Part shown: positions 9,583-31,905 of the stretch, in pieces
Numbering within the stretch: the first letter of the stretch is position 1
Layout: every line of letters begins with the position of its first letter
From: Acidimicrobiales bacterium
Lineage (GTDB): Bacteria > Actinomycetota > Acidimicrobiia > Acidimicrobiales > CATQHL01
NCBI GenBank assembly: GCA_964291305.2
Contig: OZ219784.1
Location: forward strand, 103,577 to 167,576
Reading direction: 5' to 3'
DNA length: 64,000 bases
The notes under the pieces: model-generated
Databases searched by the model: none
Seen by the model: the letters and a program-made list of their open reading frames with translations, nothing else
What the model was told of the DNA's origin: nothing
Program-made: the position numbers and the translations under genes

Positions 9583-9620
9583 AAGCAGTCCGGGCGCGGT
9601 TAGCAGTTAGTCGCACAGAG

Positions 9621-12253: not shown

Positions 12254-12289
12254 AAGGCGCCAATAGAGCGCCCAAACAGCCCAACAGCG

Positions 12290-12357
12290 CCCCACCAGCC
12301 CAAATAGCCACCAACCCAAATAGGCCCCACCAGCCCAAATAGCCACCAACCCAAATA
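12290..12357 (+). repeat. Perfect 33-bp direct repeat x2 (35-bp period) in a G/T-poor leader
   Basis: ccccaccagcccaaatagccaccaacccaaata at 12290-12322 and 12325-12357. It lies immediately 5' of the RBS aaaggag and ATG 12371. Confidence 0.9.
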
Positions 12358-12370
12358 AAAGGAGAACCGC

Positions 12371-13330: not shown

Positions 13331-13379
13331 CCCACCTGAGATAAATAGCCCACCGAGGACCCTTGCCAGGGAGGTCACC

Positions 13380-14297: not shown

Positions 14298-14309
14298 GGC
14301 TCTGTCCGG

Positions 14310-14450
14310 CCTAGACTGGCCCCCGGTCCGGGGACGAAGTCCGGTTGGAATCCGGCACTGTCCCGCAACGGTGAAGCGATGCCTGTCGCTTGGGGAAGTT
14401 CCCCAGCTTCGAACCATCGCTGAGTCCGGTCGAATCCCGGCCCGAGCAAA
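14310..14450 (+). promoter_or_regulatory. Cobalamin (B12) riboswitch
   Basis: GGGACGAAGTCCGGTTGGAATCCGGCACTGTCCCGCAACGGTGAAGCG fits the conserved core GGGAA..GGTG..AATCC..CCCGC..AC.GT. A B12-box-like GAGTCCGGTCGAATCCCGGCC follows. It lies directly 5' of a BtuF-type gene. Boundaries are approximate. Confidence 0.65.
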
Positions 14451-14535
14451 CCACAACACCCTCGAGGATCAGGGTTGGTTTGGCCGGCAGCCTCTGTCGA
14501 TCGAGCTTCTGTCCTCGACCGACAGGAGGTACCCG

Positions 14536-15729
14536 ATGCTCAAACAGCGCTCCGTTGTATTTCTCGCTTGGATTCTGGCGCTTGCCGGCTTGCTAGCCGT
14601 CAGCTGCGGCAGCGACAACACATCTGACGCTACGGCTCCGGCTCCGCCACCGGTGGCCGAGCCCGCGCCAGCACCATCGGAAGTGGATCCGCCCCCGGCA
14701 CCGCCAGAACAACCCAGGGAGGAGGCCAGCCCCACGACGGCAACCGTCGAAGAACCCCCAGCAGCCTCCTCAGCTACGACGTCTTCGCCCACGACAACTG
14801 CGCCCACGACAACTGCGCCTACGACAACTGTCGCGGTCGCGCCCGAACCGCCGAGCACCACTAGCACGACCGTTGCCACAGCGGAAGAAGAACCAGCCGG
14901 TCTGGATGCTAGGTTCCCCGTCACGATCGACTCCGACGCCGGTACCTGGATGCTGGAGCAGGCACCACAGCGCATCGTTTCCCTGTCGCCGACTGCCACC
15001 GAGACCCTTTTCGCTGTCGGTGCGGGGCCGCAAGTAGTAGCTGCCGATAGTTGGTCAACTTTCCCCCCAGAGGCTCCGACCACCGACCTCTCGGCATTCA
15101 ACCCAAACGTTGAAGCCATAACCACATACGACCCCGACCTTGTGGTGATCTCCTACGACACAAACGACCTAGTTGCCAGCCTGACCGCACTGGAAATACC
15201 GGTACTGATGAGCACAAATCCAGCTGACATCGAGGGTGGTTACACCACTATGACCCAGCTCGCTACAGCCACCGGCCACGTCGAAGGAGCCCAGGAAGTT
15301 ATCGAGTCGATGCGTACCGCCATAACCGAAACCCTGGCAAGCGCCCCCGATATCCAGATCCGCGTGTACCACGAACTCGACAATACGTACTACTCGGCAA
15401 GCTCTAACGGCTTCGTGGGTTCGGTCTATTCCACGCTCGGCGTTATCAACATCGCCGATGAAGCAGACGTCAACGGCTCGGGATTCCCCCAGCTCACCGA
15501 GGAGTACATCATCGAGGCGGACCCGCAGCTGATCGTGATTACCGACCAGACGGGTTACACCGCTGAGGATGTTGCCGCCCGTCCCGGTTGGGATTCGATC
15601 AGCGCAGTGCGTGAGGGCAACATCCTCATGGTCAACGCCGACATTGCCTCGCGCTGGGGCCCTCGTCTTCCCCAGTTCCTCAGCGCCGTGACAGAGGCTC
15701 TGACAGAAATCGCTGCTACGGCCCCCTAA
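14536..15729 (+). CDS. BtuF/FhuD-type periplasmic-binding lipoprotein (cobalamin/siderophore ABC importer)
   Basis: Track ORF 14371..15729 overlaps the riboswitch. In-frame ATG 14536 follows RBS gacaggagg and gives signal peptide MLKQRSVVFLAWILALAGLLAVSCGS (lipobox-like). A long P/T/A-rich linker precedes RIVSLSPTATETLFAVGAG. Confidence 0.8.
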   Translation: MLKQRSVVFLAWILALAGLLAVSCGSDNTSDATAPAPPPVAEPAPAPSEVDPPPAPPEQPREEASPTTATVEEPPAASSATTSSPTTTAPTTTAPTTTVAVAPEPPSTTSTTVATAEEEPAGLDARFPVTIDSDAGTWMLEQAPQRIVSLSPTATETLFAVGAGPQVVAADSWSTFPPEAPTTDLSAFNPNVEAITTYDPDLVVISYDTNDLVASLTALEIPVLMSTNPADIEGGYTTMTQLATATGHVEGAQEVIESMRTAITETLASAPDIQIRVYHELDNTYYSASSNGFVGSVYSTLGVINIADEADVNGSGFPQLTEEYIIEADPQLIVITDQTGYTAEDVAARPGWDSISAVREGNILMVNADIASRWGPRLPQFLSAVTEALTEIAATAP

Positions 15730-15763
15730 GCCGAGCCAGAACCGACAAGCACTGATACTAGCT

Positions 15764-16843
15764 ATGGCCGCACCGCCGGAACGTGCCGCGGCCGAAACGG
15801 CGGCACTGCGGGCATTCCGCTTGCCGCCGTTGGCGGCGGCAGTGGCTCTTGTAGTTGTTGCGGGCGTGGCGTTGCTTAGTGCGACGCGAGGCGCCGCCGG
15901 ACTGGGATTCACCGACGTGCTAGCGGCCATAGCGGATCGGCTGCCGCTAGTCGAGTTGGATTCGGGGCTGAGCAGCCGCCAGGAGGGCATTCTGTTCCAG
16001 ATTCGCCTGCCCCGGTTGGTGCTGGGAATGTTAGTGGGCGGGGCTTTAGCCATGGCCGGAGCCGCATATCAGGGCGTGTTCCGCAATCCCCTCGCAGACC
16101 CATACCTACTGGGCATCTCCGCCGGGGCGGGGTTCGGCGCCGTGCTAGCGATCGGGTTCGGCCTCGACTTGGGCCTGGGACCGTTCGACGCCGTGGCAGC
16201 GGCGGCGTTCGTCGGGGCGATAGTGGCGGTTACGGCCTCAGCCACCATCGCCCGGGGCGCCTGGCGCTCGACTGCCACGCTGCTACTGGCCGGCATCGCT
16301 ATGGCTTCCCTTTTCTCTGCCGCCCAGACCTACGCCTTGAGCCAGCTGAACGAGGCGCTCACCCGCGAGGTGATTTCATGGCTGTTCGGCCGGCTGAACA
16401 CCAGTGGCTGGGGGGAAGTAGGGATCCTGGGGCCTTACGTGATCGTCTGCGGGCTTGTCCTGCTGTTGCACCGCCGCCATCTGGATGTGCTGCGGGTGGG
16501 CGACGACGAGGCCCGCTCTCTGGGAATAAACCCAACTCGACTGCGGCTGGTGGTTATCCTCGCCGCCTCGCTGCTGACAGCCGCGGCGGTGTCGGTCAGC
16601 GGTCTAATAGGTTTTGTGGGCCTTGTCGTGCCCCATGTCGTCCGGCTGCTGGTGAGCCATAGTTACCGCGTCATCGTGCCACTCTCGGCGCTTGGCGGAG
16701 CGGCCTTTCTGGCGTTGGTGGACACCGGAGCCCGCACGCTCACCGCCCCCGCCGAACTGCCGGTCGGGGTAATCACCGCGTTAGTGGGCGCCCCGTTCTT
16801 CGTGCTGGTGCTGTGGCGCGCCTCCCGCAAGGTGCTGGCATGA
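15764..16843 (+). CDS. FecCD/BtuC-family ABC importer permease
   Basis: 359-aa polytopic membrane ORF. ILFQIRLPRLVLGMLVGGALAMAGAAYQGVFRNPLADPYLLGIS is typical of FecCD permeases. Confidence 0.85.
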   Translation: MAAPPERAAAETAALRAFRLPPLAAAVALVVVAGVALLSATRGAAGLGFTDVLAAIADRLPLVELDSGLSSRQEGILFQIRLPRLVLGMLVGGALAMAGAAYQGVFRNPLADPYLLGISAGAGFGAVLAIGFGLDLGLGPFDAVAAAAFVGAIVAVTASATIARGAWRSTATLLLAGIAMASLFSAAQTYALSQLNEALTREVISWLFGRLNTSGWGEVGILGPYVIVCGLVLLLHRRHLDVLRVGDDEARSLGINPTRLRLVVILAASLLTAAAVSVSGLIGFVGLVVPHVVRLLVSHSYRVIVPLSALGGAAFLALVDTGARTLTAPAELPVGVITALVGAPFFVLVLWRASRKVLA

Positions 16844-18261
16844 CGGCAGGCACAGCTCATCTTCCGCCTTCAAGCGGCGATGCACTAACAGAGCTGGACT
16901 CAGCTGCCGAATCGCTCACCTGTCGGCAGATACGGGTGTCGTTCGGCGAGATCGAGGCACTGCGCGGGGTAGACCTGCGGCTGAGCAGCGGAGAGTGGCT
17001 TGGCCTGATCGGACCGAACGGCGCCGGCAAGTCCACGCTGCTGCGCGCAATCGCTGGCCTGGTGGACTACGAAGGCAGCGTCTCTCTGGGCTGTGGCCGG
17101 CGGCTTGGCGGCCAAGATGTGGCCCTAGTGCCGCAGAACCCAACACTGCCCGAAGGCATGACTGTGGCCGAGTACGCCCTGCTGGGTCGAAGCCCCCACC
17201 TGGGTTGGCTGGAGGTGGAGTCGCGCCGTGACCGCCGCATAGTAGCCACGGCGTTGGAGCGGCTGAACCTGCAGCGGTTCGCCGACCGCCCCGTGACTCA
17301 CCTTTCCGGTGGCGAAATCCAGCGCGTCACGTTAGCGCGAGCGCTCGTCCAGCAGGCCCCGATCCTGCTCTTAGACGAGCCGACAAGCTCGCTAGATCTA
17401 GGCCACCGAGATTCTGTACTGGAGTTGATAGACAAACTGCGTCGCAACGTCGGAGTCTCAGTGATCGCCGCCATGCACGACCTCAGCACGGCTGCTCGCT
17501 TTGCCGACCGTTTGGCGCTAATCCACCGGGGGCGCATCGTGGCCGACGGCCCGCCGCAGAGCGTCCTGCAACCCAGCAGACTCTCTGCGGTCTACGCCAC
17601 GCCGCTAAACGTCCACACCATCGACGGCGAAATAGTCGTCTTGCCCACTGCCCGAACCGACCCGAACCAACAGGAGCACCCGACCATGACAACCGACCAA
17701 GCACCCCTTACCGAACGACCCTACGAGCGAGGTGAGTTGCGCTCGGCACCCTCGCTGGTGCTGGTCAACACCGGCGAGGGGAAAGGTAAGTCCACGGCGG
17801 CGTTCGGCACGGTTTTGCGGGCCGTGGCTTTGGGCTGGCCGACCGCAGTGGTTCAGTTCCTCAAGAGCGGAGATTGGAATACCGGCGAAGAGAAAGTATG
17901 TCGCAGCCTGGGCGTGGAGTGGTCCTCAGCAGGCGACGGCTTCACCTGGGAATCCGAGGACCTGGACGAGACCCAAGCTAAAGCAGTAGCCGCCTGGCAG
18001 TTCTCTGCCGAGTTGATAGCGGCGGGCAATCACCGGCTAGTGGTGCTAGACGAGATCAGCTACGCCATGACCTGGGGTTGGATCGCCGCCGCCGAAGTAG
18101 CCGCAGCGCTGGCTGGCCGCCCAGAGCAGGTCAACGTAATCCTGACAGGGCGGGACATGGCCGCAGAAATAGTCGAAGTGGCCGACACCGTTAGCGAGAT
18201 GGTGAGCGTGAAACATGCCTTCGACCGCGGTATTCGGGCCAAGAAGGGAATCGACTACTAG
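16840..18261 (+). CDS. Fusion protein: ABC importer ATPase (BtuD/FepC-like) + cob(I)alamin adenosyltransferase (CobO/BtuR)
   Basis: ATG 16840 forms an ATGA overlap with the permease stop. Walker A GPNGAGKST, signature LSGGEIQR, Walker B LLLDEPTS. With no intervening stop, a CobO domain follows: LVLVNTGEGKGKSTAAFG...VVLDEISYAM...VKHAFDRGIRAKKGIDY. An internal ATG sits at 17686. Confidence 0.8.
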   Translation: MTAGTAHLPPSSGDALTELDSAAESLTCRQIRVSFGEIEALRGVDLRLSSGEWLGLIGPNGAGKSTLLRAIAGLVDYEGSVSLGCGRRLGGQDVALVPQNPTLPEGMTVAEYALLGRSPHLGWLEVESRRDRRIVATALERLNLQRFADRPVTHLSGGEIQRVTLARALVQQAPILLLDEPTSSLDLGHRDSVLELIDKLRRNVGVSVIAAMHDLSTAARFADRLALIHRGRIVADGPPQSVLQPSRLSAVYATPLNVHTIDGEIVVLPTARTDPNQQEHPTMTTDQAPLTERPYERGELRSAPSLVLVNTGEGKGKSTAAFGTVLRAVALGWPTAVVQFLKSGDWNTGEEKVCRSLGVEWSSAGDGFTWESEDLDETQAKAVAAWQFSAELIAAGNHRLVVLDEISYAMTWGWIAAAEVAAALAGRPEQVNVILTGRDMAAEIVEVADTVSEMVSVKHAFDRGIRAKKGIDY

Positions 18262-18372
18262 TGACTACTAATTCTGCGTAAATTCTCGTAATTTTCGGCT
18301 GTCATAGCCCTGGGGTATGGTGCCTTTCGGCAGTTGCCAAACCGACCACCGACCGCAGACGGAGGGAGCTAG

Positions 18373-20658
18373 ATGGCGTATCAGATCATCCAGTCGGAAC
18401 CGTACTGGGACTGCGTGAGTTCGCTGCGTCGAGATGATCCCTACAAGTCTCACCTGGTGGACACACTCGACGATTTGCGGCGTCAACCGTTCGGCAACCC
18501 TCGCCTAAGCACCCACGACATCGGCACGGCGCGCAACGGCCGCAAACTCTTTTCCTCCGATGTAGGTGGCCGGACAAGCGACCGGCGCGTCGTCTGGCAG
18601 ATCTTCGGCCAGACCATCGTTGTACTGCTCTACGGCAACCACAAGGTCCAGGACCGGGCCAAGCGGATGCAGATCAGCTTCGATCAGCAGCAGCAGTTGA
18701 TGCAGGTGTACGAGCAGGCACCAGACTCCGAGGCAGAGCGGCCATATCGGGAACACCGCAAGACTTCAGGAACTCTGTTCATGGCGTGGACCGACCGAGA
18801 GTTGGCTTCACTTGGCTTCCCAGAACCCACCGTGGAGCACCTGCGCCGCTTGAACAGCGAGGACGAGCTTCTAGCGCTCGAAGAGAACCTGGGCCCTCAA
18901 CTTTTTGAACTCGCTGTTGAGGTAATCACCGTCGGCCCACCGGTAAGGACTATCGGCACAGCCACCGCATTGGAAGCCCCCGAGCCGCCGGTAAGCGCCA
19001 AGCCTCCAGTGGATCGCCAGCCCGAGGCACCAACCAGCGCTGAGGCCAGCACGGCTACGGCCCCGGCAACCCCGCCCGAGGTGAGCGACGAGGACCGCGA
19101 GCTGGAGCGTCTGCTGAACGACGAGCAGGCCGGAGCGCTGTTCACTCGGTTGGAGCCGGAGTTCATGGCCGAAGTGATCGGCCGACCCATCGAGGACTGG
19201 ATGATCTTCTTGCACCCCGATCAGCGCTCCACTGCAACTCGGCGTTACCAGGGCCCAGCCCGGGTGCGCGGCCCCGCTGGTACCGGCAAGACGGTGGTGG
19301 GCCTACACCGAGCCGCCCACTTAGCCGCTCGCAGCCGCGCCGCCGAGGCTGCTGGCCCAGCGAGCGATAGTGAGCCAACCCTTCCGGTGCTTGTCACTAC
19401 CTACATCAGCTCGCTGCCGCCGGTTTTCGAGGAGTTGTACGGGCGCATGCCCGGCACCCAGTCGGGCGAAGTGGAGTTCCTCAACGTCGACAAGCTGGCC
19501 CGGCAGGTATGCAAAGAGGCAGAAGAACGAGCTTATGTCAACTCGCGCAAGGTGGATACTGCTTACGAACAGGCCTTCAAGCAAGTCGTCTTGCCCGGTA
19601 CGCCGCTGCACGGCCTTACCTCGCGGTACCTGCAAGATGAGATCACCAAGATGATCAAGGGTCGGGCCATCGAGTCTTTAGAGGATTATCTGGGGATGGA
19701 GCGCACCGGCCGCCGAATGCGGCTGGGGCGGCTGCAGCGGACCCAGGTTTGGGAGTTGATGGAGTGCTGGGACGCCGAGATGGATCGACACGGCACCATG
19801 GACTTCTGCGATGTGATCCTGCGAGCACTATGGGTAGCTCGAGAAAGCACCCGGCCGCGCTATTCGGCCGTGATCGTCGACGAGGCCCAAGATCTGACCA
19901 TGGCTGGTTTGCAGTTTCTGCGGGCGCTAGTCAACGCCCCGGATCACGACGTAGACCGCCCCGATGGGCTGTTCATCCTGGGTGACGGGGCACAGCGCAT
20001 TTATCCCGGCGGTTTCACGCTGCGCCAGGCGGGGGTAGAGGTGCGCGGCCGCACCACCGTGTTGACCGAGAACTACCGCAACACTGGCGAGATCATCAGC
20101 GCGGCGCTAGCCGTGGCGGGCGATCACCGCGTGGAGGACCTCAGCGAGGAGTTCCAGCGGGGAGACGAGACGATCACAACCAGCCGTCAGGGCCCTCGAC
20201 CGTTGCGGATCGAAGCCCAAGGCTGGGATAACCAAGCCGCGGCCATCGCTCAATGCATCCAGGACTTCATAGCCGAGGACACGAGCCTCGGTCATGGAGG
20301 TATGGCGGTGTTAGTGAGTTCCAACAACGCTGCAAACGGATTCCGCAACCGCCTGGAACAGTTGGAGTTAGCAGTGCAGCCTCTAGAGAACTACGACGGA
20401 CAGCCCAACGACAAGGTAAAGGTAGGTACCTACCACCGCGCCAAGGGGCTGGAGTTCAAAGTGGTGTTCCTCCCACAACTCGGCCGTTTCCCACCCGACC
20501 CACGCAAGGGCCAAGGCGAAGAAGAAGCAGCCGAGGACTACGACCTACACATGTCGCAGTTGTTCGTAGCCATGACCCGTGCCCGAGACCGGCTAGTGGT
20601 ACTCCACAGCCCCAACGGAAGCAAAGCAATAGACCCCGCCACCGACTACTTCGAGTAG
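18373..20658 (+). CDS. RelE/ParE-like N-terminal domain fused to an SF1 (UvrD-like) helicase
   Basis: 761 aa. Residues 1-100 are toxin-like (SDRRVVWQIFGQTIVVLLYGNHK). The helicase core has WMIFLHPDQ, Walker A GPAGTGKT (aa 300-307), VIVDEAQD, ENYRNT, YHRAKGLEFKVVF and FVAMTRARDRLVVL. Confidence 0.8.
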   Translation: MAYQIIQSEPYWDCVSSLRRDDPYKSHLVDTLDDLRRQPFGNPRLSTHDIGTARNGRKLFSSDVGGRTSDRRVVWQIFGQTIVVLLYGNHKVQDRAKRMQISFDQQQQLMQVYEQAPDSEAERPYREHRKTSGTLFMAWTDRELASLGFPEPTVEHLRRLNSEDELLALEENLGPQLFELAVEVITVGPPVRTIGTATALEAPEPPVSAKPPVDRQPEAPTSAEASTATAPATPPEVSDEDRELERLLNDEQAGALFTRLEPEFMAEVIGRPIEDWMIFLHPDQRSTATRRYQGPARVRGPAGTGKTVVGLHRAAHLAARSRAAEAAGPASDSEPTLPVLVTTYISSLPPVFEELYGRMPGTQSGEVEFLNVDKLARQVCKEAEERAYVNSRKVDTAYEQAFKQVVLPGTPLHGLTSRYLQDEITKMIKGRAIESLEDYLGMERTGRRMRLGRLQRTQVWELMECWDAEMDRHGTMDFCDVILRALWVARESTRPRYSAVIVDEAQDLTMAGLQFLRALVNAPDHDVDRPDGLFILGDGAQRIYPGGFTLRQAGVEVRGRTTVLTENYRNTGEIISAALAVAGDHRVEDLSEEFQRGDETITTSRQGPRPLRIEAQGWDNQAAAIAQCIQDFIAEDTSLGHGGMAVLVSSNNAANGFRNRLEQLELAVQPLENYDGQPNDKVKVGTYHRAKGLEFKVVFLPQLGRFPPDPRKGQGEEEAAEDYDLHMSQLFVAMTRARDRLVVLHSPNGSKAIDPATDYFE

Positions 20659-20727
20659 CCCACCGAGTAGCCCAACCTGCGATATCCCGACTGAAAAAGT
20701 GACACGCTGGCTGAGCGCGCAGACCGG

Positions 20728-22908
20728 CTACACCCAATCTCGAGGATTGTCTTTGTTTGAGGTGCTGCTGACACGACCCCTGTCATCCGAGGAATCGTCG
20801 GCCTTGTCAATCTGAAGCGAAACAGAGTCCGAGCCTTCAATGATGACCCGAACCCGGTCACCGGCACATGCTCCGAGCTGCTGCAGAGGTTCGGACACGT
20901 AGCCCAGCGAGAGACCCCCGACTGATGCGAGTGGCCAGTTCACCGAGAGCCGGCGACATCCCGGCGGCGAGGAAACCTGGACTCTGATGTTGCCATCGGG
21001 TTCGCAACCCAAGGCAGCAGCGATTTCCGGCGGGAACCCGGGAACGCTGTAGCCTTTGAAGAAGCGATCCTCAACTTCGAAGCACCAGTACGGAAAACCC
21101 GCGGCCGTGTAGCCATGCAAAACGTCGCTCAGAGGTCTCAGGACGATTGAAGAAGTGTCGGCAAGACTGACAAGGCCATCCCGGAGCACGAAACGAGGAG
21201 TCCCTACAAAGGAACGAACACTAAACTCGCTCACTCCGAACTGTCGAGGCAACTCTTCAAGGATCCTCTCAAGTCGAGTAGCCCCATTATCTTCGTGGAT
21301 CCTCTGGATGATTTCCGCTGCTATGCCTTCGTACTCATCCTCGATCCATTCGACGAGACCCCAACGCACCTTGTCCGCCCTAACAACGCTTTCAAGCACC
21401 GACAAGTGTGAAACAACTCTGCCGGGGTCTAGCCCACAAAGTTCAGCAATCTCGTCTCGCGTCGCAGGTCGTCCAATCTCAAGTAGCGCTGCCTTAGCTC
21501 GAGCCCTCCTGCTATTTCTGAGCGCAAGAAAGCCGCCGAGACGATGAAAATCGCAAAGAGACACGAGCAAGTCCCAGTACTGTTCCCAGCTTGCGCTGGG
21601 TAGATGCTCCCGAAGTGCGGATTCCTGAACTAGCCCCGCGTCATCCGCCAGATTGCGGGACTCGCGCCTCAGAACGTCAAGAACATCTAAGGCAGCTTCA
21701 TTGAGGCATAAACCCTCAAGGGGAGAAAATCCCAACCTCTCCTGAAGGAAGCAACATGCTAAGTCTTGGCTTTTTGCACTGTACTCGCCTACTACCGGAT
21801 CCGAAAAAATCGACGATATATGCTCTTCAAGTTCGTTCTCACTGAGGATTGGAGGAATCTGCTCTCGAAGCAGGGACGCCATAATCTCCAGATTCGACCC
21901 AATTTTTGACTCAAAAGAACGCGTGAGAGATTTCGTCATTTGCCTGACTCGTTCTCCTGAGAGATCGAGCATCTGGCCAAGCTCGCGATATGACACCCGA
22001 GATGGGGACATGATGCGCCTTTCAAGAGTCAGCTTCTCTTCGTGTCGCAGCCCTTCCCAGAGTTCGTCGATGGCCTTGAGCACCTGATCTGCGAGACTCT
22101 GGACTTTCACCAGGTCGGAGATACGAATCTCGTGGAACTCATCGGTCAACTCGAGTTTTGCTGCCAGGTTGCTGAGATCGATGTTGAGAGCGTCTCCCAG
22201 AGTGCGAGCCCCACAGAACTCTCCCGCTACGTTCAAGATTCTCTCCAATAGCGGGATCGCAGTTTCCCAACGCTTGTATTGCTTGGTGCGGCCTAAATCT
22301 GAGGGGAGCTGAGTTGCCAGTGCTATCTGTGTTTGATCCCAACGAACATCTTGACCGGTAAAGCTGACAGTCTGCCGGTCAGCAGCGGGGAGTGACTTGA
22401 AAAGACCGACGATCTGGGCAGCTTCAATAACGCACATCAAGTCCAACAGCGAAAGCACCCCGAAGTTTGGGAGCGCCAGGAGTTGAACGACTGTCAAAGG
22501 TTCACCCGGCTTAAGTCTCTTTTGGTTAAATCCTCGGAGGATGCAGTTCCGAGTCCGAGTTCGAAGGGGCAATTCGGACAATTGCTGGGGCGTCGAATCA
22601 GCGGGGATTACGATTTGTCCTTTGAACGAACCCGGATAGCTACTAACAGCAAGGTCGGCAAGTGCAGCTTGGGCTGCATTACTGATGGGCGTAGGACGGC
22701 GATCCCAAAATGTCATCAAGTCCCCGACGACCCCAAGGTCTGACCTGGCGGCCGGTGGAGCACCCACGGCTTGGAGGAACGCCGATGGAAGCGCGGCCGA
22801 CGAGAACGATTCAATGAAACCGCGGGGTAACAAGGGAGTTGGAGGGCTGCCCCAAGGTGCGAGCGGTGTCGCACTAACAACTTCAGGAACGCTCGCTGAG
22901 ATATTCAT
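20728..22908 (-). CDS. Large multi-HTH protein: RNAP alpha-CTD-like HhH + sigma-70 region-4-like HTH + HARE-type winged helices + C-terminal barrel-like domain; no catalytic motif seen
   Basis: 726-aa ORF, visibly lower G+C than its neighbours. aa ~108-165: LSELPLRTRTRNCILRG...LLALPNFGVLSLLDL. aa ~292-332: LTLERRIMSPSRVSYRELGQMLDLSGERVRQMTKSL. Later: ALLEIGRPATRDEIAELCG...VRWGLVEW. Confidence 0.6.
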   Translation of the reverse strand: MNISASVPEVVSATPLAPWGSPPTPLLPRGFIESFSSAALPSAFLQAVGAPPAARSDLGVVGDLMTFWDRRPTPISNAAQAALADLAVSSYPGSFKGQIVIPADSTPQQLSELPLRTRTRNCILRGFNQKRLKPGEPLTVVQLLALPNFGVLSLLDLMCVIEAAQIVGLFKSLPAADRQTVSFTGQDVRWDQTQIALATQLPSDLGRTKQYKRWETAIPLLERILNVAGEFCGARTLGDALNIDLSNLAAKLELTDEFHEIRISDLVKVQSLADQVLKAIDELWEGLRHEEKLTLERRIMSPSRVSYRELGQMLDLSGERVRQMTKSLTRSFESKIGSNLEIMASLLREQIPPILSENELEEHISSIFSDPVVGEYSAKSQDLACCFLQERLGFSPLEGLCLNEAALDVLDVLRRESRNLADDAGLVQESALREHLPSASWEQYWDLLVSLCDFHRLGGFLALRNSRRARAKAALLEIGRPATRDEIAELCGLDPGRVVSHLSVLESVVRADKVRWGLVEWIEDEYEGIAAEIIQRIHEDNGATRLERILEELPRQFGVSEFSVRSFVGTPRFVLRDGLVSLADTSSIVLRPLSDVLHGYTAAGFPYWCFEVEDRFFKGYSVPGFPPEIAAALGCEPDGNIRVQVSSPPGCRRLSVNWPLASVGGLSLGYVSEPLQQLGACAGDRVRVIIEGSDSVSLQIDKADDSSDDRGRVSSTSNKDNPRDWV

Positions 22909-23096
22909 ATCGCGGCACCTTACGCAAGGGACGGCGTCGTTGGAGGTTCGGCAAGGAACTCAACCGGGACTGAAGCGCCCATGCAACGAATTTATTCTGC
23001 CCCTGCGACAGCGACATGCATGCCGAATTCAACATTGACTTTCACTGATGTCGCCGGCGTGGTCTCTGTGACATGCGCGAGGTGAGAGCTTTTTCC

Positions 23097-23190
23097 GGTT
23101 TAGACCGAGGCATTACCCCAACCGCACCTACAAGCCGACCGGTCTAACCGCACGCCAAAGTTCTACTGGTTTAGACCGAGGCACTGCCCC
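23097..23190 (+). repeat. 23-bp direct repeat x2 (71-bp period) with an inverted partial copy between, in a divergent promoter region
   Basis: ggtttagaccgaggcaTtAcccc at 23097-23119 and ggtttagaccgaggcaCtGcccc at 23168-23190. cggtctaaccg at about 23139-23149 is a near reverse complement of cggtttagaccg. Confidence 0.85.
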
Positions 23191-23201
23191 CCCCCCCCCC
23201 C
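23187..23201 (+). repeat. Homopolymeric C15 tract upstream of the DUF1156 methylase gene
   Basis: 15 uninterrupted C counted directly. It ends 22 nt before GTG 23224 and 52 nt before GTG 23254. Confidence 0.95.
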
Positions 23202-23253
23202 GACTTCCCTCACCGGGCTGTGGGTGTCGTATTGTGTTAGTACCGTCTGGGTT

Positions 23254-26084
23254 GTGAGTGTGCGGCGGAAGTTGGTTGAGGTGGCGTTGCCGTTGGATGC
23301 GATCAACGCGGCGTCGGCTCGGGAGAAGTCGATCCGTCATGGGCATCCGTCGACTTTGCATTTGTGGTGGTCACGGAAGCCGTTGGCTGCGTGCCGGGCG
23401 GTGTTGTTCGCTTCGTTGGTGGACGACCCGTCTAGCCGCCCGGAGCGGTGGCCGACTGTTGAGGCTCAGACCGCTGAGCGCAAGCGCCTGTTCGGGATTA
23501 TTGAGCGGCTAGTCCGCTGGGATAACAGCAACAACTCGGACGTGTTGGCCGAGGCGCACGCGGAGATCGCCGAGAGCTGCGACGGCGACTTACCTACTGT
23601 GTTGGACCCTTTCGCCGGCGGAGGGTCGATTCCGTTGGAGGCTCAACGGCTGGGGTTGAAGGCGGTTGCGTCTGATTTGAACCCGGTGGCAGTGCTAATC
23701 AACAAAGCACAAATCGAAATACCACCCCGGTTCGCTAATCGCCCTCCGGTGCATCCCGACCAGGAGGGCGCCACGCAACTGCGGGTTTGGTCTGGCGCTC
23801 AGGGCCTGGCCGCCGATGTGGCCTACTACGGCCGATGGATGCGAGACGAAGCCGAACGTCGCATCGGCAGCCACTACCCCACCGCCGCCAACTCGGACGG
23901 CGAGCAGCTAACGCCTATCGCCTGGATCTGGGCGCGCACCGTGCGGTCGCCAGACCCCGCCTGGAACGGCCACGTGCCACTAGCGCGATCGTTCGTGGTG
24001 TCAAAGAAGAAGGGGCGCGAGGCTTGGGCGAAGCCGGTCGTCGATCGGGCAGCCCAACGATCAGATTCGAGATCCGGACTGGCGTATCGCTGATGCTCTT
24101 GAGGGCACGGTGACCGTGGCGGTGGCCGCTGCTTGGCCACCGGCACAGCCATGCCATTCCCCTATATCCGCCAAGAGGGTCGCGCCGGGCGTATGGGCTT
24201 ACAGCTAATGGCAATCGTGGCAGAAGGCGACCGGCAGCGTGTCTACTTGCCGCCGACAGCGGATCACGTCGAGGCGGCCCGGGTGCCGCCGCCGGAGGCC
24301 CCCCCCCCCCGCGAGGCGATTTACCGCACAATCCCCGAGATTTCAAGACTCCTAACTACGGGATGACCTCATGGGCTGACCTATTCACCCCGCGGCAGTT
24401 GGTGGCCCTAACCACGTTTTCTGACCTGCTGGGTGATGTCTCCGAAATAGTATCTAGGGATGCGGCTGCGGTGGGCATGGCCGATGATGGGTTTCGGCTG
24501 CGCGACGGCGGTTGCGGTGCTCAAGCGTATGGGGACGCGATAGTTACGTATCTGGCTTTTGTGATTGATAAGTGCGCTGATTACTGGTCTTCGATCTGCA
24601 CCTGGACTAACTCAGGGGAATTTGTTCGTAGCACGTTTGCCCGTCAGGCGATCTCGATGAACTGGGACATGGCAGAAACGAATCCATTTTCTGATTCGAC
24701 GGGGAATTGGATATCGATGGTCGATTGGGTTTCCAAAGCGGTTAGCCAATCGCCTGCCCTATTTCCTGGCGAGGCGGTTCAGCAGGGCCACCGGTTGAAT
24801 AATCCTGCACGAACGTGGCACTTCCCAACCCTAGTCCCCGGCGAGGCGGCCCAGCAGGACGCCCAGTCCGCCGTCAAAGAGCACGAGAAAGTTCTCATTT
24901 CCACTGATCCGCCGTATTACGACAACATCGTGTACGCCGATTTGTCAGATTTCTTCTACGTGTGGCTGCGACGCAACCTCGCCGACGTTTGGCCGGAAGA
25001 ATGCTCGACGCTACTAGTGCCGAAAGCAGACGAACTAGTGGCAACGCCTTATCGGTTCGACGGCGACAAACGGCGAGCTGAAGAGTTCTTCGAGTCAGGG
25101 CTGAATCGTGTGTTCAGCGGTTTGGGGGAGGTGCAAGATGAGCGATTCCCGTTCACCGTCTACTACGCCTTCAAACAAGCGGAGACCACTAAGGGGGGCG
25201 TAGCGTCTACGGGCTGGGAGACGATGCTGCAGAGCCTGGTCGACGCCGGGTTCGTAATCAACGGCACCTGGCCGCTTCGAACAGAGCGGTCAAGTCGCCC
25301 TATCGCTGTCGGGGCGAACGCGCTGGCGTCTTCGATTGTGCTGGCCTGCCGGCGGCGGCCCGAGTCCGCCCCACTCGCTTCTCGGCGGGAGTTCCTGGGT
25401 GCTCTCAAAGCCGAACTGCCCGAGGCATTGCGCTTGCTGCGCCAGGGAGGCATCGCACCGGTGGATATGGCCCAAGCGGCTATCGGGCCGGGCATGGCAG
25501 TGTTCTCCCGCTACGAGCAGGTCATGGAAGCCAACGGCGAAACCATGAGAGTCCGCACCGCACTAGAACTGATCAACGAAACCCTCGACGAAGTCACACG
25601 AGAGATAGACGCCGACTTCGACTACGACACCCGCTGGGCGGTCAGCTGGTTCAGCGAATACGGCTTCGAAGAAGGCGAATACGGCCGCGCCGAGCTGCTG
25701 TCTAAGTCTCGCAACACCTCGGTAGCCGGTCTCGTAGAAGCAGGCATCGCCCAAGCCGGCGCCGGCCGGGTGCGCTTACTCCGCCTCGACGAACTAGACC
25801 TGGAATGGGACCCAGCAACCGACGACCGGTTCACCGTCTGGGAAATCACCCACCACCTCATCCGCCGCATCCACGACCTGGGCGAACAATCAGCCGCAAC
25901 CCTGCTGCGCGCGGTGGGAGGCCACGGCGACTCGGCCAAAGAACTCGCCTACCGCCTCTACCTAATCTGCGAACGCAAAAACTGGGCCGCCGAAGCGCTC
26001 GGCTACAACAGCCTCGTCACCTCCTGGGCCGAACTAACCAAACTCGCCACCCAAACCCCCACCACCGCCCCCACACTCCTATAA
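23254..26084 (+). pseudogene. DUF1156 / COG1743-type adenine-specific DNA methylase, disrupted (in-frame stops, at least 4 frame changes)
   Basis: N-terminus [55 protein letters not shown], motif [21 protein letters not shown], motif IV ISTDPPYYDNIVYADLSDFFYVWLRRN. The coding path jumps frames: 1 (to ~24050), 0 (TIRFEIRTG), 2 (DALEGTV), 1 (RGGGRCLATGTAMPFPYIRQEGRAGRMGLQLMAIV), then 0 after the C12 tract (DFKTPNYGMTSWADLFTPRQL). The track splits it into 23224..24093, 24133..24366 and 24363..26084. Confidence 0.75.
24299..24310 (+). repeat. Homopolymeric C12 tract inside the DUF1156 methylase reading frame
   Basis: 12 uninterrupted C, encoding the poly-Pro run. The reading frame changes exactly here. 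Confidence 0.95.
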
Positions 26085-26257
26085 GCGCACCCTCCTGGTT
26101 CACACCTTCGAGGCTGCGCCTGTGGTCCTCCAGTGTGGCTGTGGGGCGATCGCTGCTATAAATCCGCCTGATTCATACCTATCCAGGCGACGTGATGCGC
26201 TCGGAGCACGCGTCTGTCGCTGTTGCTATAAACCCGCCTGATTCACACCTATCCAGG
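26079..26257 (+). repeat. Three-unit degenerate tandem repeat (70-73 bp period) overlapping the methylase stop codon
   Basis: gctgctataaatccgcctgattcatacctatccagg at 26152-26187 and gttgctataaacccgcctgattcacacctatccagg at 26222-26257 (3 mismatches). A degenerate copy ctataagcgcaccctcctggttcacaccttcgagg lies at 26079-26113. Confidence 0.8.
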
Positions 26258-26277
26258 GGCTGTTTCTTGGCAGCGCG

Positions 26278-26958
26278 GTGCGCAGGTCGCGCTTCCCCCC
26301 CCCCGGTGACCTCAAGAGGCTGCCCACGCTGAGGCGCTACGGCGGGCTGGGGGTTCCCAACGCTCTTGCGTGTAGGGCTGGGCGTTTCAACTCCGACATC
26401 GAACTGCCTTACAGTCTCCGTCACGTTGACTTCCGGGCGACGTTGGAAGACGTTTACGACTTGTTCTGCGACGTGAACACGCTGCTAGTTGGTAGGGGCC
26501 TCAAACGGTTAGCGGACATGGTGCGCCCGGCGATCCTTTCGGGAGTTGTGTCGGAACTGGTCACAGCGAGCCTGGCGAAGCATTCGAGGAGTTTGGCGGT
26601 CAACAGTTATCACAACGGCCATCCTGATCTAGTCCTGAGCGGCCAATACCCCGACGATGCCGCGAGGGCCGGCTCCGAAGGCGTCGAAATCAAGTCAACG
26701 GTGAACCCTCGAGGCGCGGTGGATACTCACGGGGCACGCCCGCAGTGGTTGTGTGTCTTCGTTTACGAGATCGACACGAAAACCGAACCGGTGACGGAGC
26801 GGGTGCCTCTGCGTTTCACCGCGATCTATCTAGCTCCGGTCACCAACGCTGATTTCCGCAGCAACCCTCGCGCGACTTCGCTCGGCACACGTACCGCGAG
26901 TCTTCATAAAGACGGGCTGAAGAAGTTGCGCGATAACTGGGTCTACCTCGACTCGTAG
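26278..26958 (+). CDS. PD-(D/E)XK Type II restriction endonuclease candidate
   Basis: 226-aa maximal ORF with a canonical nuclease core: NGHPDLVL then 19 residues then EGVEIKST. It converges tail-to-tail with an MTase (16-bp overlap). The true start is uncertain: GTG 26278, or as late as TTG 26443. Confidence 0.6.
   Translation: MRRSRFPPPGDLKRLPTLRRYGGLGVPNALACRAGRFNSDIELPYSLRHVDFRATLEDVYDLFCDVNTLLVGRGLKRLADMVRPAILSGVVSELVTASLAKHSRSLAVNSYHNGHPDLVLSGQYPDDAARAGSEGVEIKSTVNPRGAVDTHGARPQWLCVFVYEIDTKTEPVTERVPLRFTAIYLAPVTNADFRSNPRATSLGTRTASLHKDGLKKLRDNWVYLDS
26295..26304 (+). repeat. Homopolymeric C10 tract at the 5' end of the restriction endonuclease ORF
   Basis: 10 uninterrupted C, codons 6-9 of the longest ORF (FPPPG). 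Confidence 0.95.
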
Positions 26959-27860
26959 TCGCGTAGTTCGGGGATCGCCCGGGTGGCGAGTTGCGCGTAG
27001 GCAGGTTCGGATTCGACGCCGATGCTGGCATAGCCCAGGTGTTCGGCGGCGGCGAGCGTGGAGCCTGACCCGGCGAACGGGTCTAGTACGACGCCTTCAC
27101 CGAGCGGCAGAATGGCCCGCACAACTTGGCGCAGAAACGCTTGCGGTTTGAGGCTCGGGTGGGGGGCGATTCTCTTCTCGGCTGGACGCGTGGGCGACGA
27201 CTCGATCACGTCCATAAACGGTTTATCGTCAGAGATGCGCCGCAGCCCTCCGGTTCCCCAGGTTCGCAAGTTGTCCTGAACGCGACCCTGCAGCGGTTTG
27301 CGGAACAGCAGCCAGGGCTCCCAGCTAGAACGCGGCATAACGGTTACCTCTGGGAACTCCTCGTGCGCGTTCTTCGGCCGGTCTCCGCCGCGCATCGTCA
27401 TAACCAGGCGTACTACTTCGCCGCGCCGCTCAAGACCCCCAGCGGCTAACGCCCCGGAGACGATGTACGAAAACAGCGGATTAGACGCCACCAACACGTG
27501 AGCCCCCGGCACGAGCACCGGCATCAGCGCGCCAGCCCAAGACGAAAAGAAACAACGAAGACGACCTAGATCATCGTCGGTCAGCACGGTAAACCTAGGC
27601 AGCGGCGACCGTGCAGCACCGTCGAAAGCGGGAGGCAACCGCCACACACCGCCGCGGCCCTGGCGGAGCTTGCGCTGCTGCAGCGGCGCATATTCCACAA
27701 GCCCGTAAGGGGGATCCGTCACCACGCCGTGAACCGAGTTCGCCGGCTGAGCCTCGAGCCACTCCAAACAGTCCCCAACAAACAACGCCGAACGGCCCAC
27801 CGACACGAACGGCACCCAACCCGCATCAACGACCGCGCTAACGGAGTCGGTAGACACCAC
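26943..27860 (-). CDS. Site-specific DNA methyltransferase, beta-class N6-adenine/N4-cytosine (PF01555-type)
   Basis: 305-aa ORF. Motif IV VVTDPPYGL precedes motif I VLDPFAGSGSTLAAAEHLGY. An alternative GTG start near 27815 would remove the overlap with the upstream gene. Confidence 0.85.
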   Translation of the reverse strand: MVSTDSVSAVVDAGWVPFVSVGRSALFVGDCLEWLEAQPANSVHGVVTDPPYGLVEYAPLQQRKLRQGRGGVWRLPPAFDGAARSPLPRFTVLTDDDLGRLRCFFSSWAGALMPVLVPGAHVLVASNPLFSYIVSGALAAGGLERRGEVVRLVMTMRGGDRPKNAHEEFPEVTVMPRSSWEPWLLFRKPLQGRVQDNLRTWGTGGLRRISDDKPFMDVIESSPTRPAEKRIAPHPSLKPQAFLRQVVRAILPLGEGVVLDPFAGSGSTLAAAEHLGYASIGVESEPAYAQLATRAIPELRDYESR

Positions 27861-29261: not shown

Positions 29262-29445
29262 GCCGCGGAGTTGCTCACAACCCACAACTCCGCAGGGAGT
29301 AGGCGCTGCTAGAGATGGCCCACCAGGCTTATGGGCAGGCTGCGTTCACAACCCACGACTCCGTAGGAGGCAGGCGCTAGCCCATAGGTGGTCGCGCTGT
29401 GCCTAGACCGCGGAGCTGCTCACAGTCCACAACTCCGCAGGCATA
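29262..29445 (+). repeat. Three ~72-bp tandem units, each carrying a hairpin-forming ~30-nt element
   Basis: gcggagttg-ctcacaaccca-caactccgc at 29265-29293 forms a perfect 9-bp stem. A degenerate copy lies at ~29339-29367. gcggagctg-ctcacagtcca-caactccgc lies at 29410-29438. Inter-hairpin segments share aggcgct(g)ctag. Confidence 0.8.
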
Positions 29446-29497
29446 GGGGAAAGAGGAGGCCACTGCCGAGTTCCGGGTCGGCGTGGTGTGATTTGTT

Positions 29498-31237
29498 TCA
29501 GCGTCGTAGGGGCGGATTCACAGCCGGCGGTTTGATGGTGTTGTTGATGTTGAACCTCGCCGCGAACCCGTGGGTGCAGGCAGTCCAAGCACCGCGCCGT
29601 ACAGGTGGGGTATTGCCAAGCTGGTCGGGGTGTTGGAGCGTGAACCTGCCGTCGGCGTCTCGGACTACTTCGGCGCCTCTGGTGTGAACCAAATGGTGGT
29701 GGCAGTAGCTGCAGAGCAGGCAGAGGTTGTCGAGGTCGGTTTTGCCTCCGTGCTCCCAGTGGGTGATGTGGTGTGCTTGGCACCAGTTAGCCGAAGCCCC
29801 GCAACCCACGCAACCCTTATCCCGCACAGCCAACACCGCGCGCTGGCGGCTAGAAGCGTGGCGTTTACCCCGGCCGAGCCACAAAGGCTCGCTCTTACCC
29901 TTAAACACAGCCGGCAAGATTCTCGCGTCACACGCCAAACCGAGAAGCTCCTCAACCGACAGCGGGGTGCCATCAGAGAGGCGGGCGTCACGTAGTTGGC
30001 CCGCAATGGTGTCGTAGTCGGCGACCACCAACAGGTCCACACCCTGAGCCTTGCCCGCAGACTTACCAGCCTTGCCGGTTCCGCCGCTGTTGGTGACGAG
30101 CTGTTCGAGCACGTCGGCCATGCGCTGACCCGAAGAAAGCCGACGTTTAGCATCCTCAGCGTGGAACAGCCGGTTAGCCGTAGCAGTGAGAGCGGTCTCG
30201 ATGCGACTACCAGCCACCGGATCGAACCGGCCCATTAGGGAGAACATCCCATCGGGTTCCTGCTTGATATTCAAATAGCGCCGCTCCCGCTGACGCGCCC
30301 GCCGCTCCCCAAGATCACCCCGAGTCTGCTCGTTCACAAAATCGCGGACAGTGCGGCTGAACCGATCCTCGGACTCCCGCCCCGCAGCATCCAACAACCC
30401 AGCCTCACCACCCGGATCACCAGATGGGGTTTGTTCTACGGCTTCGGCGATCATCTTGGCTTGCTTCGCAGTGATAGCCCCAGAGCGCAAAGCCTCAGCA
30501 GTCCCAGGCGCCCGGCCCAACTGCTCGGCCAACTTCACGTCCTGCTTAGCCCGACCGCGTGACTGCCTCAAACCGTCACGCAACACATCAACCGCGTGGC
30601 CCTCACCCCGACGGCGGGCCAACTCGCCCACCATCTCAGCCTTCACCGCAGCCAACCGAGACTCACACCTGCCGACCAACACCAACCGAGCCTCCAACTC
30701 CCCATCAGCCAAACCCCCAACCAACAAATCCGAGGAAAACAAACCAACCAAACCCTCAACATCAAACCCCGCGCCAAGACCGGACACGCCAGCCGACCTA
30801 GAGGACCCAGTAGCGGCACCAGAGGCCCCACCAGCAGAAGTGCCATTGCGCCCAACAACAGATACTCGGTCAGCGGACCCAACAACGGCGGCAGCGGACC
30901 CGGCAGCACCGACGGCGCCGGCAGCCCCAACAGCGACGACCGCAGACTCATCAGCAGACCCAACAACGGCGGCAGCGGACCCGGCAGCACCGACGGCGCC
31001 GGCAGCCCCAACAGCGACGCCAACAGACCCAAAGACAGCAGCGCCGGCGGCCCCAACAGCAGCACCATCGGCCCCAATAGCGGTGGTGCCGTTATGCCCA
31101 GCAGCACCCCCGCCAGCGCGCCCAGCAGCAGCACCCCCGCCAGCGCGCCCAGCAGCAGCGTCGTTCAGCTCGGCAGCGCCGTCGGGCTCAGCAGCAACCC
31201 CAACAGCCGAGTCGTCGAACAGAGTCGCAATCGTCAT
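29498..31237 (-). CDS. DUF222 / REP13E12-family HNH endonuclease
   Basis: C-terminal HNH DKGCVGCGASANWCQAHHITHWEHGGKTDLDNLCLLCSYCHHHLVH. Probable start ATG 31237 (MTIATLFDD); the track ORF extends to 31420. The N-terminal third is A/G-rich repeats. Confidence 0.85.
   Translation of the reverse strand: MTIATLFDDSAVGVAAEPDGAAELNDAAAGRAGGGAAAGRAGGGAAGHNGTTAIGADGAAVGAAGAAVFGSVGVAVGAAGAVGAAGSAAAVVGSADESAVVAVGAAGAVGAAGSAAAVVGSADRVSVVGRNGTSAGGASGAATGSSRSAGVSGLGAGFDVEGLVGLFSSDLLVGGLADGELEARLVLVGRCESRLAAVKAEMVGELARRRGEGHAVDVLRDGLRQSRGRAKQDVKLAEQLGRAPGTAEALRSGAITAKQAKMIAEAVEQTPSGDPGGEAGLLDAAGRESEDRFSRTVRDFVNEQTRGDLGERRARQRERRYLNIKQEPDGMFSLMGRFDPVAGSRIETALTATANRLFHAEDAKRRLSSGQRMADVLEQLVTNSGGTGKAGKSAGKAQGVDLLVVADYDTIAGQLRDARLSDGTPLSVEELLGLACDARILPAVFKGKSEPLWLGRGKRHASSRQRAVLAVRDKGCVGCGASANWCQAHHITHWEHGGKTDLDNLCLLCSYCHHHLVHTRGAEVVRDADGRFTLQHPDQLGNTPPVRRGAWTACTHGFAARFNINNTIKPPAVNPPLRR
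30871..31019 (-). repeat. 81-bp in-frame tandem duplication inside the HNH gene (a 27-bp x2 repeat lies at ~31100-31156)
   Basis: A 68-bp block cagc(g/a)gacccaacaacggcggcagcggacccggcagcaccgacggcgccggcagccccaacagcgacg occurs at 30871-30938 and 30952-31019. It encodes AVGAAGAVGAAGSAAAVVGSAD twice. Confidence 0.85.
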
Positions 31238-31722
31238 CAGACACCCCCTCAAAACAGTGTGCACCGTTGGCTTCCGTTCGGCGGAGCCGACAAGCCGGAC
31301 AAACAACACCAACCCCGCAAACAGATCAGCGACCGGTACCAAGCAGTTTATCCAATCAACACAAAAACACAACGTCTGTATGTAATCTGAGGGAAATAAT
31401 TTTAAGCGACAGCCGCACAAAGACGGAAACGGTGTCGATCGCGCCGTCTAGTGCCTTCTCATCCCACCCCGCGGCAGGTGCTCTCACAGCACGGGGCGCT
31501 GGCACCCAACGCCCAAAGAAGCTGCTGGAACACTCACCGCCTGAGACTGCCGCTTGCGTCCTCTACGCAAAGTTCGACAGCACGCGCTACCGGCGCCCGG
31601 AACACTCACCGCCCGAGTTTGACGCTTGCGCCTAGGGCGAGATCGGCTTCGGCGGTGAGAACAACTACCCACGCAACCAGCGGGAACCGAAGCCGCTTGC
31701 GCCTAGTCCGAGATTAGCTGGC

Positions 31723-31905
31723 GGCGAGCGTTCGCCTTACTGATCAGCAGCGGTGCGCTGGTTGGGCATCGACCAGCTGGCCCGACGAGGCCCGGCGAGC
31801 GTTCGCCTTACTGATCAGCAGCGGTGCGCTGGTTGGGCATCGACCAGCTGGCCCGACGAGGCCTCGGCGAGCGTTCGCCTTACTTATCAGCAGCGGTGTG
31901 CTGTG
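31723..31905 (+). repeat. 71/72-bp tandem repeat, about 2.5 near-identical units; more degenerate 72-73-bp units upstream to ~31520
   Basis: The unit ggcgagcgttcgccttactgatcagcagcggtgcgctggttgggcatcgaccagctggcccgacgaggccc starts at 31723, 31794 and 31866. ggaacactcaccgcc also repeats at ~31525 and ~31598, and cgcttgcgcctag at ~31622 and ~31694. Confidence 0.9.

Follow-up and report, generated by a model that had tools for sequence, protein, structure and literature searches.

We find that a defence island in a 64,000-nt stretch of DNA from an uncultured Acidimicrobiales bacterium (contig OZ219784.1, positions 103,577 to 167,576; hereafter the window) carries three long cytosine tracts at what would be three classic switch positions: C15 upstream of an HmaB-type DNA methylase gene, C12 within that gene, and C10 early in the neighbouring gene for an endonuclease-like protein. 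With moderate confidence, we read all three as hypermutable slipped-strand contingency switches at the HmaB and endonuclease genes, and the 71-nt-spaced repeats next to C15 as scars and not as dedicated operators. HmaB is the DUF1156 N6-adenine methylase of the Hma system (PMC11232893), lately renamed BREX-related type 1 (bioRxiv 10.1101/2025.10.09.681413), and simple repeats and phase variation go unmentioned in both accounts. The tracts associate strongly with the HmaB family, and the tract in the methylase coding sequence differs in length and frame between orthologs.

Simple repeats at HmaB genes

The three tracts lie on the same strand and span 3.1 kb, as the original prediction had stated, and no other homopolymer in the window exceeds 7 nt, the longest being G7 (7895-7901) and C7 (46774-46780). 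The window's own C-run statistics (P(C|C) ~0.30, 14,552 C runs) give an expectation of ~0.3 runs of at least 10, 0.03 runs of at least 12 and 0.0008 runs of at least 15 per 64 kb, and three such runs in 3.1 kb far exceed chance. C15, C12 and C10 are within the hypermutable range of G/C tracts (~8-9 nt or more), and the two coding tracts are placed where a change of length alters the frame: C12 joins two methylase frames, and C10 lies between the sole start codon of the endonuclease-like gene and its conserved body.

The association extends well beyond the window. Across 79 HmaB loci from species-representative genomes, together with several contigs obtained by protein look-up (mostly Acidimicrobiales; 1.45 Mb), 18 of 21 G/C tracts of at least 9 nt are found at HmaB, 13 in the coding sequence and 5 within 450 nt upstream, as against an expected fraction of 0.21 (binomial p = 4e-10). 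Alignment by tblastn with the intact ortholog P0121 reveals that ten of twelve HmaB frameshift junctions coincide with a simple repeat of at least 11 nt, namely G15 and G14 in locus L011, G17 in L022, G11 in L079, C12 in L081, (AG)14 in L082, G18, G21 and G22 in L131, and C12 in the window; tracts in frame are G11 in L011, G19 in L131, C10 in L001 and C9 in L046. These repeats fall at three sites of the protein (the GGG of the DPFAGGGS motif, residues ~271-296 and residues ~334-371) and comprise G runs, C runs and a dinucleotide repeat, which argues that they arose independently and repeatedly. They are also independent of the sequencing platform, since L016 was assembled from Illumina reads with MEGAHIT and the other loci from long reads.

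Tandem arrays show several such tracts side by side. The circular 2.78-Mb genome that contains L131 has five tandem HmaB genes (6939-20903), four of which carry same-site tracts, G18, G21 and G22 out of frame and G19 in frame, while the fifth is tract-free; L011 (7983-19726) has at least four tandem copies, and paralogs P0002-P0006 lie on a single 2.39-Mb contig, where two of them begin at or just past the GGG motif. P0002-P0006 are near-identical over their C-terminal ~250 aa and variable in the middle, a pattern that hints at gene conversion and differing specificities. Complete Hma trios are present in L016, L022 and L082; in the last, the (AG)14 repeat (5926-5953) is the break point of a split HmaB gene in a complete locus (SNF2 helicase, HmaB, HEPN-DUF499). 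Tracts upstream of the gene recur as well: C17 and C13 lie in the divergent intergenic region before the L022 HmaB gene that carries G17, a repeat pair and then G12 precede HmaB in L016, and L001 has G9.

Slipped-strand phase variation is thus well supported for this locus by the association of tracts with HmaB, by the frameshift junctions at repeats and by the tracts of the tandem arrays; for C15 it is proposed by analogy. The HmaB tracts are most likely simple-repeat contingency switches, of a kind well known in pathogens and not yet described for the HmaB family. Replication slippage would change tract length frequently, and in C12 and C10 each such change could shift the frame and turn the protein on or off; as assembled here, the methylase tract would be off and the endonuclease tract on.

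The methylase gene itself provides both support and difficulty for this reading. PADLOC identifies the ortholog P0121 as full-length HmaB (E = 0, 1192 bits), and the window fragment matches Pfam DUF1156. P0121 is an intact 943-aa protein encoded on L001, an ENA long-read metagenome contig, at 91% nucleotide identity, and at the codons where the window has C12, out of frame by +2, it has C10 in frame (ETPPPRGDL). The homology covers the coding sequence and little more, beginning 4 nt ahead of the start and ending 6 nt past the stop (limits 23250 and 26090 in the window, 9997 and 12838 in L001), and the flanks are unrelated, as if the gene had been exchanged as a cassette or by paralog conversion. 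When genome contigs were searched with P0121, the best match reached 67% identity, and none was closely related to the window. HmaA (SNF2 helicase with a NOV_C nuclease domain) and HmaC (DUF499 ATPase) are not among the neighbours of the window methylase, which is therefore an orphan.

Disruption of the methylase in this assembly, missed by the original prediction, goes beyond C12. Relative to L001, single bases are deleted after 24057, 24084 and 24110, 27 and 26 nt apart and none in a homopolymer; jointly they restore the frame, but a stop at 24091-24093 comes first. The deletions may reflect true decay of the gene or a consensus that is locally wrong, e.g., through mixing of paralog or strain reads. 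If they are real, the methylase might be a decaying pseudogene and C15 the product of neutral slippage in unconstrained, horizontally acquired island DNA, regulating nothing now. Such a relic, which we consider unlikely, would account for the deletions, the premature stop and the out-of-frame C12 together, and the lower G+C of the island and the lack of promoter conservation with the ortholog fit it too. However, the frame is otherwise preserved along 2.8 kb, the protein being 89-92% identical to the intact ortholog, tracts recur at intact HmaB genes elsewhere, long tracts that are not maintained decay through point mutation, and the deletions may be no more than the consensus errors just mentioned.

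Errors of sequencing, assembly or polishing are a scarcely credible source of the tracts as such. Long homopolymers are error-prone, so that the lengths 15, 12 and 10 may be off by one or two, and the three odd 1-nt deletions fall in the same gene; yet the tracts sit in conserved frames that continue on both sides, the C12 site carries C10 in an independent assembly (L001), similar tracts are found in many independent metagenome-assembled genomes from different assemblers and platforms, and the rest of the window has long, intact open reading frames.

Table 1. Features of the window discussed in the text; positions are counted from its first base
Feature	Position	Strand	Basis or remark
Divergent 726-aa helix-turn-helix (HTH) protein gene	20728..22908	-	Open reading frame listing; weak HTH_24 and Sigma70_r4 matches
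Divergent intergenic region, 345 bp	22909..23253		Between HTH gene and DUF1156 gene
Repeat copy 1 (R1)	23090..23128		Exact 16-mer core 23097-23112
Insert S between R1 and R2	23129..23160		Sequence unrelated; contains inverted partial copy CGGTCTAACC at 23140-23149
Repeat copy 2 (R2)	23161..23199		Exact 16-mer core 23168-23183; 3′ part now C tract
C15 homopolymer	23187-23201	+	53-67 nt upstream of methylase start codon; longest of three
Candidate -10-like hexamers (TANNNT)	TATTGT 23231-36, TACCGT 23241-46	+	Sole ones before the start; suggested by reading the sequence
HmaB-type DUF1156 N6-adenine methylase gene, disrupted	23254..26084	+	Pfam DUF1156 and MethyltransfD12; PADLOC HmaB; frames; tblastn
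C12 tract inside methylase (PPP linker)	24299-24310	+	+2 out of frame here; ortholog C10 in frame
In-frame 72-nt repeat-insert-repeat unit in methylase	24757..24867	+	24-aa insertion absent from paralogs P0002, P0007
Three-copy repeat at methylase 3′ end, spacing 70-73 nt	26071..26257		First copy includes stop codon (CCACACTCCTATAA...)
226-aa PD-(D/E)xK protein, EcoRV/NaeI-like predicted fold	26278..26958	+	Putative Type II restriction endonuclease
C10 tract, codons 6-9 of endonuclease-like gene	26295-26304	+	In frame as assembled here
Convergent N6_N4 Type II methylase	26943..27860	-	Pfam; PADLOC MTase_II, 382 bits

The C15 tract and its promoter region

C15 lies in a divergent setting, between the HTH gene (start 22908) and the DUF1156 methylase gene, as originally described. 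Two possible starts, GTG 23224 and GTG 23254, follow the end of the tract at 22 nt and 52 nt, both distances agreeing with the original prediction, and alignment with the intact ortholog P0121 identifies GTG 23254 as the real methylase start. C15 thereby belongs to the class of tracts 21-80 nt upstream of a gene, rated in PMC1891110 as the most likely to overlap a promoter. It is non-coding, as no ATG, GTG or TTG precedes it within 23090-23186, and a translational role for the tract was dismissed on the same grounds.

Scans for sigma-70 promoters and terminators in both intergenic regions returned nothing. By eye, the sole -10-like hexamers before the start begin 30 and 40 nt past the end of C15; the second of these, TACCGT, would yield a leaderless mRNA starting at ~23254, and L001 has TATGGT 9 nt before its GTG, at an equivalent distance. 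With candidate -10 elements 30-40 nt downstream, C15 would sit upstream of the -35 element and not between -35 and -10. Each C gained or lost would then alter the distance and the helical phase between the repeated 16-mer and other upstream DNA on one side and the core promoter on the other, and in this way might tune or switch transcription. We infer both this effect of C15 length on the promoter and the switching of the tracts within the population.

C-stretches of C10 to C19 are found in Bordetella fim promoters (PMC1891110), and C15 resembles those of fim2, fim3 and fimX (PMC1891110; Willems 1990) in length, in its distance to the start codon and in the conserved box that precedes it. Unlike the fim tracts, which lie between an activator site and the -10 element, C15 would lie upstream of -35, with no promoter-like pair around it and the nearest TANNNT hexamers downstream of it, and no BvgA-like system is involved. 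The original prediction had C15 acting as a slipped-strand switch within a promoter spacer; the switch-like character of the tracts stands (C12 versus C10, and the frameshifts that coincide with repeats), while the placement in a spacer finds no sigma-70 pair in its favour.

Several points weigh against a contingency switch at C15 and, in part, at its companions. A sigma-70 scan of the region finds no -35/-10 pair, and no pair flanks C15. Long-read assemblies do not give dependable consensus lengths for long homopolymers, and the on and off states read here could be wrong or could be population averages. The C12-versus-C10 length polymorphism comes from one close ortholog, and if the three deletions and the stop are real, C15 may control a dead gene. 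Comparison with relatives, which the original prediction had proposed as a check, yields C10 at the C12 site in L001 but nothing to set against C15, as homology between the window and L001 begins only 4 nt before the start codon and leaves no orthologous promoter to compare.

The sequence that precedes C15 contains the 23-bp direct repeat of the original prediction, with copies at 23097 and 23168 (spacing 71) that match at 21 of 23 positions. Its core, the 16-mer GGTTTAGACCGAGGCA, is exact at 23097-23112 and 23168-23183, whereas the flanks have diverged, R1 and R2 being alike over 39 nt at 77%. R2 enters the C tract directly, as had been noted, and where R2 has the tract R1 reads CCCCAACCGCACC. 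An inverted partial copy, originally placed at ~23139, was found at 23140-23149; it is the reverse complement of GGTTTAGACCG minus one T, a match equalled by 2 of 300 shuffles, uncorrected for the 21 units tested. The 16-mer has no further site in the window with up to 3 mismatches allowed, is absent from all comparison loci, and gives 44 single matches in JGI metagenomes, all attributable to chance.

That these 16-mers and the inverted copy bind a regulator, e.g., the divergent HTH protein, with the C tract setting their spacing to RNA polymerase, seems to us quite unlikely. The core is identical in both copies while the flanks differ, it is near-palindromic (GGTnTAnACC), it is accompanied by the inverted copy, and the second copy abuts the tract. 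Set against this, the motif occurs nowhere else in 64 kb nor in homologous promoters, at least eight other units, unrelated in sequence, have the same 71-nt spacing, the HTH protein has its homologs in phosphorothioation-type defence operons and not beside methylases, and the shuffle figure carries no correction for its 21 tests. The original suggestion that the repeats are operators is thereby weakened, the spacing being window- and lineage-wide and the 16-mer unique, with some room left for a binding site: the perfect core and the inverted partial copy make a secondary binding-site function of the 16-mer possible.

C15 could also act at the level of nucleic acid structure. The G15/C15 duplex might form a G-quadruplex or an i-motif, G15 barely sufficing for three tetrads linked by 1-nt loops; alternatively, were transcription to start upstream of the tract, the C-rich RNA might load Rho, which prefers poly(C) as its ligand. 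We regard either as very unlikely, as there is no promoter-like site upstream of the tract and no excess folding of the region (z = -0.3 for 22909..23253, nothing unusual), and the coding tracts, which act by frame, would be left unexplained. An Rfam scan of the same 345 bp gave no match.

Repeat-insert-repeat units of about 71 nt

The R1-R2 pair is one of many. Distances between repeated 11-mers in the window have a sharp maximum at 69-72 nt, to which at least nine loci contribute (5066, 6340, 23090, 24757, 26154, 29275, 31527, 31623 and 31722-31793), and a 72-nt peak is found in L001, L011, L016, L022 and L131 as well; the non-Acidimicrobiales loci have no such peak, save for a genuine CRISPR array in the Nostoc locus L071. 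Core operons contain none of the units, all of which lie within or next to defence or mobile genes; they are found in promoters, directly past stop codons and, in frame, inside the methylase. Besides the C15 region, units extend over 5066-5218, 6340-6446, 24757-24867, 26071-26257, 29275-29450 and 31527-31935 in the window, and over 9737-10000, 12819-13305, 14910-15760, 17471-17579 and 18727-18835 in L001.

In the window, L001, L011 and L022 they consist of a repeat R (33-37 nt) that recurs after an insert S (34-38 nt), i.e., 1.5 copies of R plus S. The R copies are up to 100% identical, S is unrelated to R and to the sequence past the second R, and R differs entirely in sequence from locus to locus. 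In the C15 region, R is ~37-39 nt (77%) and S ~32-34 nt, and at that identity the unit is old. Some loci have three or four R copies with different inserts (29275 in the window; 15157 and 15528 in L001), and others have identical inserts instead (31722 in the window; 12819 in L001). Because the unit inside the methylase amounts to a net 24 aa absent from P0002 and P0007, its direction is known, and it is an insertion. A 2.0-copy tandem duplication was dismissed for most units, given this net insertion and the fact that S is unlike the sequence after the second R. No true CRISPR array occurs in the Acidimicrobiales loci examined, the sole one being that of Nostoc.

At the 3′ end of the methylase, the best two of the three copies (26154-26187 and 26224-26257) are 94% identical. 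In both genomes the stop codon lies within the first repeat past the methylase (CCACNCTGCTNTAA; 26071-26084 in the window, 12819-12975 in L001), and L001 has four extra copies of the CCACNCTGCTNTAA motif 2.7 kb off (15528-15760) that resemble relics of another HmaB 3′ end. In three repeat-insert-repeat cases a homopolymer follows 0-40 nt 3′ of the second repeat (23161-23201 and 26224-26304 in the window; 7671-7746 in L016).

As the leading origin of the units we propose, by analogy, off-target spacer integration. Arrays of type I-G systems in other species have 36-bp repeats and ~36-bp spacers (PMC12915315, PMC6547450), the same dimensions as the units (~36 + ~36 nt), L001, the closest relative, carries a type I-G cas operon (Cas4-Cas1 fusion, Cas3, GSU0053, GSU0054), and off-target integration by E. 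coli Cas1-Cas2 duplicates a repeat-length target (Nivala 2018, as cited in bioRxiv 10.1101/148544); these three observations are the basis of the proposal. Each unit, including the pair at C15, would then be a scar common in the defence islands of this lineage, with ~35 nt of new DNA set between duplicates of a ~36-nt target. The units resemble such 'neo-CRISPR' products in having a repeat-length duplicated target around a spacer-length insert and in forming mini-arrays with 2-3 different inserts, and differ from them in being natural, numerous and concentrated in defence islands, each with a different pseudo-repeat. Caveats apply to this origin: R ranges from 28 to 50 nt in L131 while the period holds steady at 71-74 nt, and neither cas genes nor a true array were seen in the window. 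The inserts, too, have no match within 1.5 Mb of window and locus sequence, and exact 26-28-mer scans of IMG/VR with five of them returned none.

If a CRISPR integrase makes the units, no earlier record of off-target spacer integration in nature would be as dense, and they would be the first of this kind. More tentatively still, the units may be scars of promiscuous type I-G Cas4/1-Cas2 integration which, with G/C tracts of up to 22 nt, render HmaB loci and their arrays of up to five paralogs a hyper-evolvable, stochastically switched repertoire of defence or epigenetic states.

Neighbouring genes and known systems

The 226-aa protein encoded downstream of the methylase has 560 homologs, whose alignments start at residue ~35, and it carries an HPD...GxExK motif. 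A sequence search of the PDB returned nothing, and a fold search was used instead: the structure model (pLDDT 89; residues 1-30 disordered) has restriction endonucleases as all of its top 37 PDB fold matches, among them NaeI, EcoRV, BglI, SfiI and NlaIV. The family, with ~560 members, has no Pfam, NCBIfam or PADLOC model, and the predicted fold makes it a putative, uncatalogued family of Type II restriction endonucleases. GTG 26278 is the sole in-frame canonical start before the conserved body, which places C10 at codons 6-9. The convergent N6_N4 methylase is the likely partner of this protein, and the pair looks like a restriction-modification system whose endonuclease gene has a 5′ switch tract.

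The window is chromosomal, with hisD, cobalamin genes and the nuo operon on board, and the defence island, of G+C slightly below its surroundings, extends over ~18.4-31.9 kb. It comprises genes for a UvrD/GajB-like helicase, the 726-aa HTH protein, the DUF1156 methylase, the 226-aa protein, the Type II N6/N4 methylase, a nucleotidyltransferase and a DUF222-HNH protein. The last of these, like the nearest relatives of the methylase, indicates an uncultured actinobacterium, probably of the Acidimicrobiia. The HTH protein belongs to a rare family without a name (66 homologs, the closest at 50% identity). Homologs in L127 (7001-9328) and L128 (7001-9865) come directly after SspABCD-like phosphorothioation genes (cysteine desulfurase, DUF4007, large ATPase, PAPS reductase), with overlapping starts, which suggests a phosphorothioation-linked defence component and not a plain regulator. 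Exact-protein look-ups with the HTH protein, the methylase fragment and paralogs P0002, P0003 and P0340 matched no record.

Phase-variable DNA methylases are a textbook case in a few host-adapted pathogens, and to our knowledge a single actinobacterial case is known, Streptomyces Pgl. The G tract in pglX of S. coelicolor switches at 1e-2 to 1e-4 (Sumby & Smith 2003, as summarised in PMC4365076), and the NucS mismatch repair of actinobacteria does not correct indels (PMC8228993). The window resembles Pgl in combining an actinobacterium, a BREX-type N6-adenine methylase and an in-gene G/C homopolymer that sets the frame, HmaB having been described as the counterpart of the type-3 BREX methylase (bioRxiv 10.1101/2025.10.09.681413). 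It departs from Pgl in that the methylase is of the DUF1156/HmaB family and an orphan, without helicase and ATPase partners, in the extra tracts upstream and in the neighbouring endonuclease gene, and in the tandem arrays of HmaB relatives with up to five paralogs and G18-G22, and its switching is a prediction from sequence. The same methylase differs from Hma/BREX-related type 1 systems, whose HmaB it matches over its full length, in having neither the SNF2/NOV_C helicase nor the DUF499 ATPase beside it.

Phasevarions (PMC4209511, PMC6902483) provide a further parallel, as they too have a simple repeat in a methylase gene and random on/off states, and the orphan methylase could likewise be an epigenetic switch. 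They are known from host-adapted Haemophilus, Neisseria, Helicobacter and Moraxella, with Type I or III enzymes and mostly tetra- or penta-nucleotide repeats or shorter G tracts, whereas in the window the enzyme is of HmaB type, the source is a high-G+C actinobacterium, environmental or symbiotic, and the switch is a putative one. The same switch logic would operate in a barely studied Hma/BREX-related type 1 family of uncultured Acidimicrobiia, and the tandem paralog arrays suggest that natural communities switch methylation and defence specificity combinatorially. Annotators should note that many an HmaB gene called "frameshifted" in a long-read metagenome-assembled genome is probably in one of its switch states and not dead, and because HiFi reads hold tract length and N6-methyladenine kinetics of single molecules, existing data offer a test bed.

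Three further repeats were noted. A G12 tract (L025, 4969-4980) at codons ~15-18 of a gene for an 806-aa cadherin-like-domain protein adjoining an N6/N4 methylase is likely another 5′ switch tract, in this case of a putative surface protein. In the window, a near-perfect 69-nt tandem repeat (2.2 copies; 4147-5253) lies in frame at the 3′ end of an N6/N4 methylase gene, and an 81-nt repeat (1.9 copies; 30870-31019) lies in frame within the DUF222-HNH gene.

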